Shown piece after piece: positions 41,544 through 62,508 of a stretch of DNA of 64,000 nt. Made by a program: the position numbers and the translations under genes. Below the pieces are notes generated by a model. The model saw only the letters and a list, made by a program, of their open reading frames with translations, was not told where the DNA came from and did no database searches. Each line of letters opens with the position of its first letter. The first letter of the stretch is position 1. The stretch is taken from contig OZ024749.1 in assembly GCA_964016885.1 (NCBI GenBank), positions 16,802,001-16,866,000 on the forward strand, written 5' to 3'. Origin of the DNA: Eledone cirrhosa (Eukaryota).

Positions 41544-42395
41544 ATATTAGAAAGATCGAGTATCGAAAAATCGGCGCACGAGTTCACGATAAACAATATT
41601 CGAAATGAGCGGCAGAGGGCTCAATAATTCAGATGAATCAGAGCTATAACTATCGTTAAAATACCGTCACACATAGAACAAGTCTAAAATCAACCATACA
41701 ATAAAAAATCGATAATAGAAGATTCGGGACAAACAGATAAAAAATATCAATAAAACAATACATCAATAATTTAAATGAATGTAAAATCATACCCGGACCC
41801 ACTAGAAAGGTGTTAAATCTAGCTTCTTGGGTTTCTGTAAATCCTTAGACTGTACTCTATCAGCTCACATATAAATATATAAGACTACTAGAGCAAGCGG
41901 AATGGAGTTTACTTCATCAACGAGCTTTTTCCTAGCGGATAAGAGGCTAACTACAAGCGAAATACGCACATGGAATTCGACAAGGGATATAACCTCTACA
42001 TCCGCGAAAATTATTCGAGGAAATGTGGAAATACACATATCGAATAAGAGTGCTCAATAGACATGTTAAAATAAAACAGGAGCTATTCATCACTCAATAG
42101 AATCGACAAAAAATGAGCAATAAAATTAACTGGTGGATAGCTATGTCCAGAGCTAAAAATATTAGAAAGATCGAGTATCGAAAAATCGGCGCACGAGTTC
42201 ACGATAAACAATATTCGAAATGAGCGGCAGAGGGCTCAATAATTCAGATGAATCAGAGCTATAACTATCGTTAAAATACCGTCACACATAGAACAAGTCT
42301 AAAATCAACCATACGATAAAAAATCGATAATAGAAGATTCGGGACAAACAGATAAAAAATATCAATAAAACAATACATCAATAATTTAAATGAAT
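41544..42395 (-). mobile_element. Retrozyme-like ORF-less element: 615-bp unit with 237-bp terminal redundancy
   Basis: 41544-41780 matches 42159-42395 (1 mismatch seen); HHR at 41792-41924; TA-rich flanks. Confidence 0.75.
41792..41924 (-). ncRNA. Type I hammerhead with extended stems II and III
   Basis: ctcg-TTGATGA-a gtaaactcc..ggatttac a-GAAA-CCC..gctaga/tctagt..GGG-TC-cggg. Confidence 0.75.
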
Positions 42396-42489
42396 ATATA
42401 TATTGTGTGTGTCTGTGTGTTTATATATATATGTTTTTCTTTGTATATTAATCATCTTTTAACATATATATGTGTATATAAAATATATA

Positions 42490-42565
42490 CAGGGTCTCCC
42501 CAAAAATGTATACACACTTCAACTACAGTCTATGTAAGTGTGTATACATTTTTGGGGGACATTGT
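42490..42565. mobile_element. ~76-bp Tc1/mariner-type MITE (second copy 44515-44592, part of an inverted duplication)
   Basis: TA|CAGGGT(C/G)TCCC..AAATGTATACAC terminal inverted repeats, TA flanks. Confidence 0.75.
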
Positions 42566-42910
42566 AATATACATATCATTAAACGTGTCTCCTACATGTG
42601 TATAAATAAATACACATGTGTTTTATTAATAATTTTGTGTAGAATCGGTTAAACATGGAAGAAAATGTGGAGACTAAATAAAATTAACGTGTTGGTCACG
42701 TTAATTTAATAATATAACTATATATTAATGAAATATGTCGAAATAAAAGTTGTAATTGTGACAAAAATATAGATTCGGTAGTTTATTATGACCAAGATTG
42801 AATATTTAATGGAATTAAGTGGAATTTATTAGGAAATAAGACAATAAAACAGTGAAATGTTGAGGTTAAAGGAGAGAAAAACAAAATGTCCTCTCTTTAT
42901 AAACTTTAAT

Positions 42911-43090
42911 TGTTTCTACTTTAGGCACAAGGCCAGCAATTACCCAGTGCATTACTGGTACTTTATTTTATCGACCTCGTAAGGATGAAAGGCAAAGTCA
43001 ACCTCGGCGGGATTTGAACCAGATCGTAAAGGGACGTAACTATGCTGGAAAGCATGGCGTCCGACCCTCTACCGATACTGCCAATCCACC
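42911..43090 (-). mobile_element. Full-length SINE with ~21-bp target-site duplication
   Basis: Reverse complement of 27170-27352; cctctctttataaactttaat at 42890-42910 and 43089-43109. Confidence 0.88.
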
Positions 43091-43182
43091 TCTCTTTATA
43101 AACTTTAATGTGGCTGAATTAGTAGCGGCTCAGCTTACTAACCTCAGCTCTCTCATCTTACAAGGGTTCGAATCTCACGTAG

Positions 43183-58461: not shown

Positions 58462-58663
58462 ATAAAAATAAAAATAAAAATAAAAATAAAAATAAAAATA
58501 AAAATAAAAATAAAAATAAAAATAAAAATAAAAATAAAAATAAAAATAAAAATAAAAATAAAAATAAAAATAAAAATAAAAATAAAAATAAAAATAAAAA
58601 TAAAAATAATAAAAATAAAAATAAAAATAAAAATAAAAATAAAAATAAAAATAAAAATAAAAA
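58462..58663. repeat. (ATAAAA)n hexanucleotide microsatellite
   Basis: Direct reading. Confidence 0.98.
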
Positions 58664-60733
58664 TGAAGCATTGGCAGTCTATGAAGATAAAGCAAGAGGA
58701 AAGTTTAGAGTAGTCAGTGTATGAAACAATCTCACGTGTAGCATGCACGCGTGTCTTATTTATACAGGATTAGAGTGCGTCAGAATGTTATTCGCAGGGT
58801 CAGGCAGTTGAAGCAGGCAATCGATATTATTATGTGGGCTGAATTATTAAATCATTTATTCGCATACACCTGTATGATATACAGTCCCGAATGTAGAGAA
58901 ACACCAAAATATCTAAAATTTCAAACATATTATAAACCGTATTATATCGTAGGCAAAACAGTACCACTGTCTTCGCGCACACCACCACTCACATAATCCA
59001 TGAGACGCAATATATAGAACACGGGTCTATCATATAATTCACGATGGTTCAGCATACAACCAAGTTATAAACCGTATCTTGTCGATTCTTAATTAATAGA
59101 TCATTTTGTTTAGTTTGTGTGATGATATATATTCCGGAAGTGTGTGTATGACCAAGGGGAATTAATGCGTAAGTGGAGGTAACTAGCTGGTTTTCTTAGT
59201 TAAATTTATTATCCTAAATTACATTAATGGTGTTCAAATAAGTGCCTATCATATGATGTTATAACTAATTTCTAGATTATGTTACTTATTTATAGGTTAC
59301 AGTGTTGTCTATTAAGAAGTACTAAAGGTGTATATATCAGGATGATTACCTTCTATTAAGGGGTGTCATATCTGAACATTCTATAAGAGGAGTCAGACCA
59401 CCAAATCAATGTTCTTTGTAAATGTAATTCCTCCCGCAGGACCTGGCATGGTCCTATTATTATATATGACTCCCGTAGGCTCTGGGTCATTGTATGTCTG
59501 AATACTTGGTAAATCTGAATATCTTCAGGATGGCCCGGAGATCAAATTTCTCATATAAAGACACCAGTCTGGCCACCAAGCAATACATAAACTCCCATCT
59601 CACATATAAATTAAATTAGGTATCTTATCTACAAATTAGAGTGGAGTCTATTAATAAGTACTAAAGGAGTTCATATCATGATGATTACAATCTAATATGG
59701 AGTGCCACACCTGGACAATCTATAAAAAGAGTCAGACTACAAAATTAATTATATGGGTCTCACTACTAATAATGGTCTTATTATCATACAAGACTCCCGG
59801 AAAGTTTCAGGTCATTGTATGACTGCATCCCCGGTAAATTCACCAGGGTGGTCCGGGGGCCATTTCTCTCATCAAAAGATACCAATCAGGTCATCAAGCA
59901 ACACAGAAACTCCTAACTCATGTATTACCTGTGCATAATTCATTGAACTGATCGTATAGAGTATATAATCACATAACAATAAGATTACCTACCTAATCAT
60001 CAATCTATCTCATGGTGGCATTCCATGCACAGGACTATGTTAGCACAACCAATACCGTGTCTACAGTTTATATTAATCATATATTTGTGCAATGCAGTTT
60101 AAGTAATTCACGGCCGAGATATCAGAATTAGAAGTACATGGGGGTATCCCCAGGGTAGATGGTACTAAAATGCTGCCAGTATTACCCTTAGAGTATATAA
60201 ATGGGTGTGGAGATGAGGTGTAAGGTGTGCTACTGATGCTAATTGCTAGGGGTATATATATATACATATATATATATATATATACATATATATATATATA
60301 CATATATATATATATATATATATATATACATATATTAGAAAGTGAGGTTTTTTTTACAAAATGAAAAATAACCGAGGTGTCCTACACGAGTGAAAGTATA
60401 AAGAAAAAGAGATGAAATCGAAAATGCAACTGGAGTCTTATTTAAAAAAAATATATATATATATTTATTTGGTTCCTTTACCGGTTTCGCAATTCTTCTG
60501 CTTTTCAAAAGGTGAGTTGAGATGGAGGGTCTGTGGTTTTTCTCACATCTGGTTGGTCTCTCAATGTTACTTGTTTTATTATGGAAAAAGTGGCTCGAAA
60601 TGCCAGGTTTTTCGAGAAGTAATTTGATTGGTTTGTCAATAATTATAATAAATTTCGCGCCAGTTCGCGTTACAATAGTTCTTCAAATAAGAGGGGGGGG
60701 GGGGTTGTCACAGGTTGTTTTTTCATATATGAG

Positions 60734-61345
60734 TGTTTGAATTTCTTTTTACTTGAAAAAAGGGGCTCACGAAGGTTTTTTTTTGGTTGGTTATAAATGA
60801 AATTATGGCTGTCACGTGAACAAGTTTTCATTAAATTTTCGTGTCCTTATTTGGAAATCCATTCTGTAGCCTTTTTAGAGAATTTTATGATAAGTGAAAG
60901 ATAATGGTCAAGAGAAAGGGATGGGAGAATTGTTCTGGTTCAGTGAATATGGTTAGTTCGCTGGGGTGTCAGAATTCAGATTTTCTATTGAATAAAGAAA
61001 GTAAAGATATGTATGTTTATTTGTGTGCTTGTGTGTCTGTGCGTGTGTGTGTGTGTGTGTGTGTGTGTTTGAATTTCTTTACTTTAAAAAAAGGTGGCTC
61101 ACGAAGGCTTTTTTTTAATAAACGTGATTTGATTGGTTATAAATGAAATTTTGCTGTCACGTGAACAAGTTTTCATTACATTTTTGCGCCCTTATTTGGA
61201 AATCTATTCTGTAGCCTTTATAGAGAATGTTATGAGAATGGAAAGATAGTGGTCAAGAGAAATGGGATTGGGAGAATTGTTCTGGTTCAGTGAATATGGT
61301 TAGTTCGCTGGGGTGTCAGAGTTCAGATTTTCTATTGAAGTAAAG
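60734..61345. repeat. Two ~330-bp degenerate tandem copies
   Basis: 60734-61010 is similar to 61064-61345. Confidence 0.85.
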
Positions 61346-61836
61346 ATATGTATGTTTATTTGTGTGTGTGTGTGTGTGTGTGTGTGTGTGTGTGTATGTG
61401 TGTATTGGAAGATGATTCTATTAGTAGAAATGGGGGAGGGAGTTGTGTGTGTATATGGGTGTTATGTGTGTGTGTGCGAGTATGTTAAGATGGAGAGAAT
61501 ATATATTTTGTGTGTGTGTATATATGTGTGTAGGAAAGTGGTTCTATTAGTAGAAATGGGGGAGGGGAGTTGTGAGTGTGGGGGTTGTTATGTGTGTGTA
61601 TGGGTGTTATGTGTGTGGGAGTATGGTTAGCATGTTAAGATGAAGAGAATATATATATATATATATATTGTGTGTGTGTGTGTGTGTGTGTGTGTGTGTG
61701 TGTGTGTGTGTGTGTAGGAAAATGATTCCTTTAGTAGGAATATTTTTGAATGAACATATTTTCCTTACTTATTCGTATTTGTTCTGTTGTATTGTCAGTG
61801 CAAATGTATGTTAAGGTTTATTTAGTTCGGGTTTTT

Positions 61837-62508
61837 ACGTTTTGTGTTTATCATATATTTTAATGTATTTAACTGCTCGGAAATGCCCCTTTTCTTGGAG
61901 CTGGATTATTGTAAACGACTGAGAGTTTATTCTCAAAATATAATATAGTATATTGCTCCTTAACTGTAGAGCTGATCTTTAATCCCGCATAAACGGCTGT
62001 TATTTCTAGCACCGGGAATGCGGGACGGCTAATTTGGCCTGGCTACACACGTGTAGTCAGACCTGCTAAATTTTTGAGGTGAAATATACTAATTTTACTG
62101 GGTTCCTGTTGATAAGCACAGAAGATTTGGATATTTCACTTTTTATTTCTATTCCATTTCGATTCTCTTTATTTTTCAATTCACGTACCACCGTTGCGAA
62201 ACGGATTTAGGTTTCGAGGTTCAAATTCATCTACGGAGCAGGTTTGGATTTTGAAATTTAAATTTGTCCAGGAACCATGGCCTTTGCCAATATAAGCTTG
62301 TCTTTATTGACTTATATCGAGACAGACAAATTGTATTCACTTTAATTAGTTTATTTCATTAATAGCTAACTTTGTCTGTTACAATGCAAACACGTTTTGT
62401 GTTTATCATATATTTTAATGTATTTAACTGCTCGGAAATGCCCCTTTTCTTGGAGCTGGATTATTGTAAACGACTGAGAGTTTATTCTCAAAATATAATA
62501 TAGTATAT
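61837..62508 (+). mobile_element. Retrozyme-like ORF-less element: 555-bp unit with 117-bp terminal redundancy
   Basis: 61837-61953 matches 62392-62508; HHR at 62101-62276; ends in (TA)n. Confidence 0.75.
62101..62276 (+). ncRNA. Type I hammerhead, U3-A8 core, 26-bp stem III
   Basis: ggttcctg-TTGATAA-GCA..TGC-GAAA-[62202-62227/62241-62266]-TC-caggaacc. Confidence 0.85.

Follow-up and report, generated by a model that had tools for sequence, protein, structure and literature searches.

The metazoan retrozymes without long terminal repeats (LTRs) have been described as AT-rich repeats that lack an open reading frame (ORF), carry one type I hammerhead ribozyme per unit and occur as monomers to multimers, and it has been proposed that they are circular RNAs mobilised by Penelope-like elements (PLEs) (PMC7229834, PMC4209133). 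Retrozyme families ranging over 51-972 bp, and their origin from PLEs, have been reported in a preprint that leaves the mechanism open and, in the portions considered here, mentions no mollusc (bioRxiv 10.64898/2026.07.22.740005). A purified PLE enzyme has been found to use two internal start sites and to extend both strands in vitro (PMC11167929), and a tail on one arm only is described as a PLE pattern (PMC8557442, PMC3846280), although in one of these accounts inverted junctions are attributed instead to self-priming (PMC3846280). The movement of animal retrozymes, and the origin of the partial tandems and inverted arms of Penelope, are stated to be open in the sources cited. The present analysis concerns three repeats, E1, E2 and E3, in a 64,000-nt stretch of contig OZ024749.1 of Eledone cirrhosa (the window, to which all coordinates refer), which were followed by searches over the 3.0-Gb genome. 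E1-E3 are very probably Penelope-type, RNA-mediated, non-autonomous elements; that they are non-LTR retrozymes, whose predicted self-cutting RNA would form a circle and serve as template for a borrowed Penelope enzyme inserting at TA repeats, is moderately likely. The concept itself is already published; what is new are these families and the traces that their insertion has left in the genome.

With the metazoan non-LTR retrozymes, as far as these are described, E1-E3 share the ORF-less AT-rich repeat, the single type I hammerhead, the range from monomers to multimers, the lack of LTR features and the co-occurrence of PLEs. They differ in exceeding the 170-400 nt of the circles demonstrated by experiment, in occurring mostly as dispersed copies of 0.3-2 units with a strict (TA)n target, and in having long-armed ribozymes with a U3 core that escape Rfam; the units show no detectable homology with terminal repeats from the sampled PLEs, and sister families at about 70% identity are also ORF-less. 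Fixed internal starts and paired arms are not among the traits described in the portions of those accounts considered here. To the preliminary description the units looked larger than minimal hammerhead repeats; at 555-668 nt they fall within the reported 51-972 bp, so that their size is not exceptional. The non-autonomous PLEs of Chlamys (MRC1, PMC8557442) are likewise non-coding, with partial-tandem pseudo-LTRs, head-to-tail multicopy insertions and helpers that target microsatellites; according to that account, however, they generally have 3' ends in common with autonomous families, which was not found for E1-E3, and mostly lack canonical hammerheads, of which E1-E3 have one per unit. The endonuclease-bearing (EN+) PLEs (Poseidon PAc, PMC11167929; Adineta Penelope, PMC3846280) resemble E1-E3 in their two internal start sites, one-arm tail, inverted 5'-truncated arm, AT-rich target and hammerhead upstream of the start sites, as there reported, whereas E1-E3 have no ORF, their sites lie 85-110 nt apart rather than 30-40, and their start sites overlap (TA)n by a few bases where the starts of PAc show no homology. 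The LTR retrozymes of plants and the viroid-like circular RNAs (PMC5680766) are described as similar in size (600-1000 nt), self-pairing and hammerhead content, but E1-E3 have type I rather than type III ribozymes, found in one polarity only and free to fold rather than blocked, and variable 5' ends. Neither such cephalopod elements nor such a retrozyme insertion footprint was found among literature titles and abstracts (subscription journals, Repbase and Dfam apart), and the word hammerhead is absent from the main text of the Octopus vulgaris repeat annotation paper; the E1-E3 families may already exist in catalogues under unclassified repeats.

Three unrelated repeats and their predicted ribozymes

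As delimited by self-comparison and genome searches, E1 (41544..42395, minus strand) consists of 1.39 units of a 615-nt repeat, E2 (57060..57977, minus strand) of 1.38 units of a 666-668-nt repeat and E3 (61837..62508, plus strand) of 1.21 units of a 555-nt repeat. The preliminary description had presented them as unrelated, ORF-less partial tandems with near-identical terminal repeats, and this stands: the periods of 615, 666-668 and 555 were found again, with 41544-41783 repeated at 42159-42398 (240 bp, 99.2% identity) in E1, 57060-57309 at 57726-57977 (252 columns, 99.2%) in E2 and 61837-61953 at 62392-62508 (117 bp, 100%) in E3. The three units have no mutual similarity (best blastn E 0.078), the longest stop-free frame on the circularised units is at most 75 amino acids (aa) on either strand, and no common ORF is attached to family copies at the sampled loci.

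Each unit carries a predicted type I hammerhead. That of E1 (41791..41925, minus strand), identified by its fold, a structural descriptor and compensatory changes in the sister family L128, has stem I GCUCG/CGGGU, the core UUGAUGA (U3.G8) at 41920-41914 and a predicted cut at GUC, 41796/41795; stem II is long with an unpaired A on each side, stem III is also long, the minimum-energy fold is the hammerhead itself, with a z of only -1.7, and the core is identical in all 60 occurrences matched by pattern. An alternative core, CUGAUAGA, was rejected in favour of UUGAUGA as it sits within a hairpin. The E3 ribozyme (62101..62276, plus strand), recognised by descriptor, fold and stem I compensation in the relative L213, combines an 8-bp stem I, the core UUGAUAA (U3-A8), a predicted cut at GUC, 62268/62269, an 82-nt domain II and a 27-pair stem III rich in G.U, its fold having a z of -3.55. 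For E2 (57348..57424, minus strand), folding, pattern counts and the relatives L057 and L170 point to a 6-bp stem I UAUCCC/GGGAUA, the core CUGAUGA and a predicted cut at GUA, 57354/57353; helix III is minimal and palindromic (ACCAUGGU) and the base of stem II is degraded or weak. The window copy of E2 fails the descriptor, with core, stem I and helix III retained, and L057 and L170 have a canonical G-C-closed stem II. The cut junctions had thus been placed correctly in the earlier reading of the window, and its long-armed type I hammerhead was borne out for E1 and E3, which pass descriptor, fold and covariation, and not for E2, whose predicted ribozyme is likely to be dimer-dependent or weak. 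For PLE hammerheads, U3-A8 cores, an unpaired base past position 9 and a palindromic dimer-type helix III are among the features reported (PMC4209133), and variation of the hammerhead core has been covered elsewhere (PMC3088659).

In sister families of about 70% identity the core and cut site are kept and the stems carry compensatory changes: L213 shows a U-A to A-U swap in stem I relative to E3, and L128, whose core is U3-A8, shows two stem II A-U pairs changed to G-C and one altered stem III pair relative to E1. Within E3 itself, one pair of stem I varies, with G-C in 28 copies, A-U in 13, G-U in 2 and A-C in 1 (n=44). Such compensation argues, at the level of sequence comparison, that the ribozyme fold is under selection in the E1-E3 families. 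Shuffled units matched the descriptor in 0/300 (E1), 3/300 (E2) and 1/300 (E3) trials. In Rfam scans of 7 loci nothing reached the gathering score, and hammerheads were likewise missing from the listed 150 of the 239 window matches; E1 and E3 provide natural long-armed U3-core variants that Rfam misses. A viroid-like replicon would carry ribozymes in both polarities; no antisense match was found in any of the three units with the descriptor, whose sensitivity is limited since it also misses the sense strand of E2. The predicted circular folds are better than those of 25 shuffles (z -2.9, -3.3 and -5.9 for E1, E2 and E3), as are those of the antisense circles of E1 and E3. A weak descriptor match (stems 5/3/3) at 19528-19474, in another dispersed repeat, may be due to chance.

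Insertion ends and paired arms

In the following, an arm is a single contiguous same-strand run of one family, and the phase is the number of bases in RNA sense counted from the predicted cut, phase 1 being the first base past it. A first look returned 2226, 3211 and 1888 candidates for E1, E2 and E3, which are not copy numbers; in each family search the 39-40 best matches were scored and 30 loci kept, and short queries were run in addition to obtain samples without length bias. De-duplication by flanks left 43, 81 and 88 arms, of which 41, 67 and 86 passed the filters (at least 93% identity, at least 60 nt and a closed 3' end). Each element belongs to a dispersed, high-copy and young family, with 94-100% identity among the scored matches, and not to a single-copy local duplication. 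The 1.2-1.4 units noted earlier hold for the three window copies and not for the families, in which copies span 0.1-5.2 units (maxima 5.2 in E1, 2.7 in E2 and 3.0 in E3); arms longer than one unit make up 30/41 in E1, 29/67 in E2 and 30/86 in E3, and 10/19, 8/28 and 13/46 in the short-query sample. The sister family of E1, L128 (2913 candidates, unit of about 580 nt), is built alike and has no common ORF in 20 loci, and further ORF-less hammerhead sister families with 63-75% identity to E1-E3 were seen (L128:330-680, L213:7-563, L057, L170, L207, L219).

The 3' ends fall at one or two internal sites. In E1, 38 of 41 arms end at phase 252-253, two others being fragments of a diverged relative and one ending at 145; in E2, 39 of 67 end near 296 and 22 near 403, with 4 near 372 and 2 at 275; in E3, 53 of 86 end near 240 and 31 near 155, with 2 elsewhere, and an E3 query devoid of the first site (site A) recovered identical 3' ends. 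Arms of E1 from a second site are under-sampled, as both E1 queries spanned phases 136-248. A (TA)n tract flanks the 3' end in 39/41, 55/67 and 77/86 arms, which upholds the earlier claim of a 3' end fused into (TA)n; the orientation of E1 and E2 had to be corrected, for both are read on the minus strand and the fused end is their left end. In the window, site A of E1 lies at 41544, 252 nt past the cut and adjoining (TA)n (41370..41547), and its 5' end stops about 15 nt before the position expected for the next cut site; E2 has site A at 57060 and the second site, B, at about 57619, with (TA)n on both sides; site A of E3, at 62508, is beside (TA)n, and site B lies at about 62423. The 5' ends are variable in all three families. 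Of the permuted ends expected by the preliminary description only this variability of the 5' ends was recovered, copying apparently beginning not at permuted points but at sites fixed 240-296 nt downstream of the cut. No fixed LTR-type ends were seen (primer-binding sites and polypurine tracts were not searched for), and the variable 5' ends and type I topology differ from the two fixed LTR ends and type III hammerheads of plant-type LTR retrozymes and terminal-repeat retrotransposons in miniature.

Many insertions (22 of E2 and 30 of E3) consist of two arms arranged head-to-head, with the 3' ends outward and mostly onto (TA)n; a single inverted pair was sampled for E1. The paired arms use two different 3' sites in 30/30 E3 and 21/22 E2 cases (51/52) and agree at diagnostic columns while overlapping in sequence, with 0/191 and 16/253 discordant columns against 43.5% and 42.2% in comparison with other loci. 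They would result from two priming events, either on a single RNA or on two RNAs of common source. In four loci (L040, L049, L053, L086) both arms exceed one unit. The build of a PLE insertion, with fixed 3' end, 5' truncation, inverted arm and a tail at one end, is thus present.

The predicted cut site and the nature of the template

At the predicted cut, copies either stop or continue. With the expectation corrected for exposure by how each arm was found, 5' ends at phases -8 to +40 number 13 against 3.9 expected in E1 and 24 against 11.5 in E3 (family-wise p 0.006 and 0.037), and this excess tracks AT content only weakly. Passes continue over the cut in 40/53, 32/38 and 46/70 cases in E1, E2 and E3, and none of 180 crossings (63, 53 and 64) contains an indel, which excludes sloppy jumps. 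Crossing is also found in 13/19, 19/28 and 28/46 short-query arms, including sub-unit copies without redundancy. Minor subfamily alleles were common to all passes 59, 70 and 55 times and discordant 1, 18 and 4 times, and the repeats within one copy differ by 0.4, 2.3 and 1.3%, compared with medians of 1.1, 3.6 and 2.6% to other copies. The clean crossings and shared alleles indicate that the template is continuous over the cut and homogeneous between turns.

A circular RNA is, on balance, the probable template. Copies of about 1.6 units or more would be transcribed, two hammerheads would release a monomer, and this would be ligated or kept as a nicked circle by stem I. A GIY-YIG endonuclease would then cut (TA)n and the DNA end would prime at the fixed internal site found 240-296 nt past the cut; the other DNA end would often prime at a second site 85-110 nt distant, on a template of the same variant and possibly the same molecule, giving the head-to-head arms. 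From there the enzyme may drop off anywhere, more often at the ribozyme in E1 and E3, or pass the cut cleanly for up to 5 turns, as the lengths of the copies suggest. A circle would explain the clean crossing, the regaining of length over generations and the lack of a pile-up in E2, given the argument that a dimer-type ribozyme is unable to reopen a monomer circle (PMC4209133). The insertion by a PLE put forward in the preliminary description is thereby retained as a class of mechanism, in view of the high copy number, (TA)n target, over-unit copies, clean crossings, double arms and young PLE ORFs, with its permuted starts given up. A more far-reaching account can be offered only tentatively: E1-E3 may be old, independent circular ribozyme lineages of about 600 nt, unlike the ends of any helper, on which a dimeric Penelope enzyme would prime both target strands at two fixed sites of one circle and roll up to five times, leaving thousands of genomic records, with ribozyme strength (monomer-competent in E1 and E3, dimer-only in E2) setting the stops.

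Several observations weigh against this reading. The samples, being the best 40 matches per search, are skewed to young copies, and the pile-up window was picked after inspection of the data. E2 shows no pile-up (6 against 5.5 expected, p 1.0) and yet makes over-unit copies despite its weak stem II. The U3.G8 core of E1 may be expected to be slow. Since the stops of E3 cluster at phases 9-12, where stem I has its foot and the sequence is palindromic, stalling or microhomology rivals run-off at a cut end there, and the pile-up in general may come from stalling at structure or from palindromic microhomology. Against background indel rates of 0.9, 6.4 and 0.7% in E1, E2 and E3, the absence of indels at crossings is significant only in E2. 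The nearest other copies, with medians of 0.2, 1.6 and 1.05%, are as close as the repeats of one copy or closer, so that identity within a copy does not by itself require a circle. No sequence or 3' end is shared with autonomous PLEs among those of the window, 30 GIY-YIG loci and 16 family-F loci (see below). Of the frog retrozyme dimers in the preprint cited above, 1/9 cleaved as reported (bioRxiv 10.64898/2026.07.22.740005).

Among the alternatives, a Penelope-driven process that needs no circle and copies a linear multimer, either uncut or partly cut, transcribed from tandem copies is unlikely but carries the most weight. Arrays of 2-5 units exist as possible sources, seamless crossings fit it equally, E2 spreads despite its weak ribozyme, and uncut RNA is reported as the main PLE substrate in vitro, with the hammerhead dispensable (PMC11167929), which tells against the circle. 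Without regeneration of length, however, such copies would be expected only to shorten from one generation to the next; different passes repeatedly end at the same phase, and the double over-unit arms would need transcripts of 2.5-3.4 units if made on one molecule. The differences between repeats, which seldom recur among loci (3, 4 and 2 patterns among 45, 133 and 60 discordances), also speak against it, with low power because few sister copies were sampled. As the nearest copies are close and uncut multimers transcribed from homogeneous arrays would fit as well, the circle is favoured, not proven. It is more doubtful still that the template is a cut linear monomer on which the enzyme jumps from the 5' to the 3' end to exceed one unit: E1 and E3 have a surplus of stops at the cut, which would fit, the two ends would be held together by stem I, and one contig junction, among three contig runs of one sample and of unrecorded kind aligned to E3, returns exactly at 62268 (weak evidence), but there is no indel in the 180 crossings and switches of subfamily between passes of one copy are rare. 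Any jump would need to be precise and confined to one molecule, and such a template is therefore functionally a nicked circle.

A mobiliser other than a PLE, such as an R4/Dong- or RTE-type long interspersed nuclear element (LINE) or a Helitron-like DNA route, the behaviour of R4/Dong and Helitron being general background, is very improbable. RTE-like LINEs do occur in the window, and no sequence tie to any Penelope-type family was found among those sampled; nevertheless, a scan of the window for tRNA genes gave none, and what has been described for PLEs is the combination seen here, namely two start sites, a tail on one arm, inverted head-to-head copies, partial tandem structure, type I hammerheads and insertion at (TA)n. 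That the redundancy arose after insertion, by local duplication of DNA or by unequal crossover as in the birth of a satellite, a route proposed for retrozyme arrays in the preprint on frog retrozymes (bioRxiv 10.64898/2026.07.22.740005), is scarcely credible, although a few adjacent passes with common changes (L005, L082) suggest that some arrays may have been extended in this way: even sub-unit copies, which have no redundancy, run across the cut, partial lengths vary freely against a fixed 3' end, and the double arms are left unexplained. These young, short and abundant families offer base-level footprints, namely fixed starts, obligate two-site pairs, clean crossings and ribozyme-dependent stops; with young candidate enzymes in the same genome, the model of a circular template is therefore directly testable with 600-nt RNAs.

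Candidate helpers and neighbouring features

Young, intact Penelope-type ORFs with a (TA)n target occur in the genome, in which 150 GIY-YIG matches were scored, and in the window. An autonomous element of this kind lies between (TA)n tracts at 50191..54555 (minus strand), recognised by its ORF, self-comparison and a weak RVT_1 match (E 0.00066, below the cut-off); it has a 942-aa open frame at 50768-53596 with an asparagine-rich stretch at the N terminus, and a 1001-bp inverted arm that is 100% identical and lacks the tail of about 55 nt. Its architecture resembles that of E1-E3, with no sequence in common, and it is a candidate helper for them. A further fragment, 98% identical to it, is found at 55033-55901.

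A second autonomous Penelope-type family, F, is represented, by genome comparison, by a 5'-truncated 3' untranslated region at 60335..61837 (minus strand), which meets the 5' end of E3 head-to-head with no TA between them and abuts the (TA)n tract 60253-60335 with its 3' end. Elsewhere the family has many equal-scoring copies with 775-aa open frames (such as L253, L254 and L255), 3.9-kb tandem copies at 99.7%, a (TA)n target, two 3' ends and a hammerhead-like core (U3-A8), and is apparently very active. As the window fragment differs from its sampled relatives by at least 2.2% over the 3' part and by 0.8-1.6% at the junction, its insertion together with E3 as a single event is neither shown nor excluded. 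An 11-nt match between E1 and family-F 3' ends is lost in E1 relatives and was rejected as a link. Direct junctions of E1-E3 with other elements are few and mixed (two of E3 with F, one each of E1 with a window E-type, a B-type and an RTE element, and that at L051) and may have arisen by nested insertion into a common TA tract. At L096:1100-2233 and L051:760-2230, E1 or E2 is joined straight to Penelope-type 3' ends with no TA between, by template switching or nested insertion.

Other Penelope-type elements are also present. Of the nested inverted repeats (832 and 1123 bp, 97%) at 7736-13204, the inner one is such an element, whose linker, CNCRNKANC, fits the CxCX5C motif described for the Hydra clade (PMC8557442), the correspondence being by motif only, with a relative at 46944-48990. 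Two more, with a C-terminal endonuclease, occupy 951-3570 and 4163-7291; a perfect hairpin at 5981-6065, called a microRNA by Rfam, is the meeting point of the two arms of the latter.

Elsewhere in the window, a C2H2 zinc-finger array of about 16 fingers with an 84-bp period and a 516-aa frame lies on the minus strand at 19936-21486, and RTE-like LINEs with endonuclease, reverse transcriptase, a PHD-like finger and (ATC)n-type tails are found at 27876-30794, with relatives over 17419-34960. A two-copy 150-bp repeat occurs at 43133-43473 and a 65-bp tandem array of 14.5 copies at 46004-46927. The 3' end of a further repeat family, which genome-wide is often found at (TA)n beside copies of E1-E3, lies at 55900-56648.

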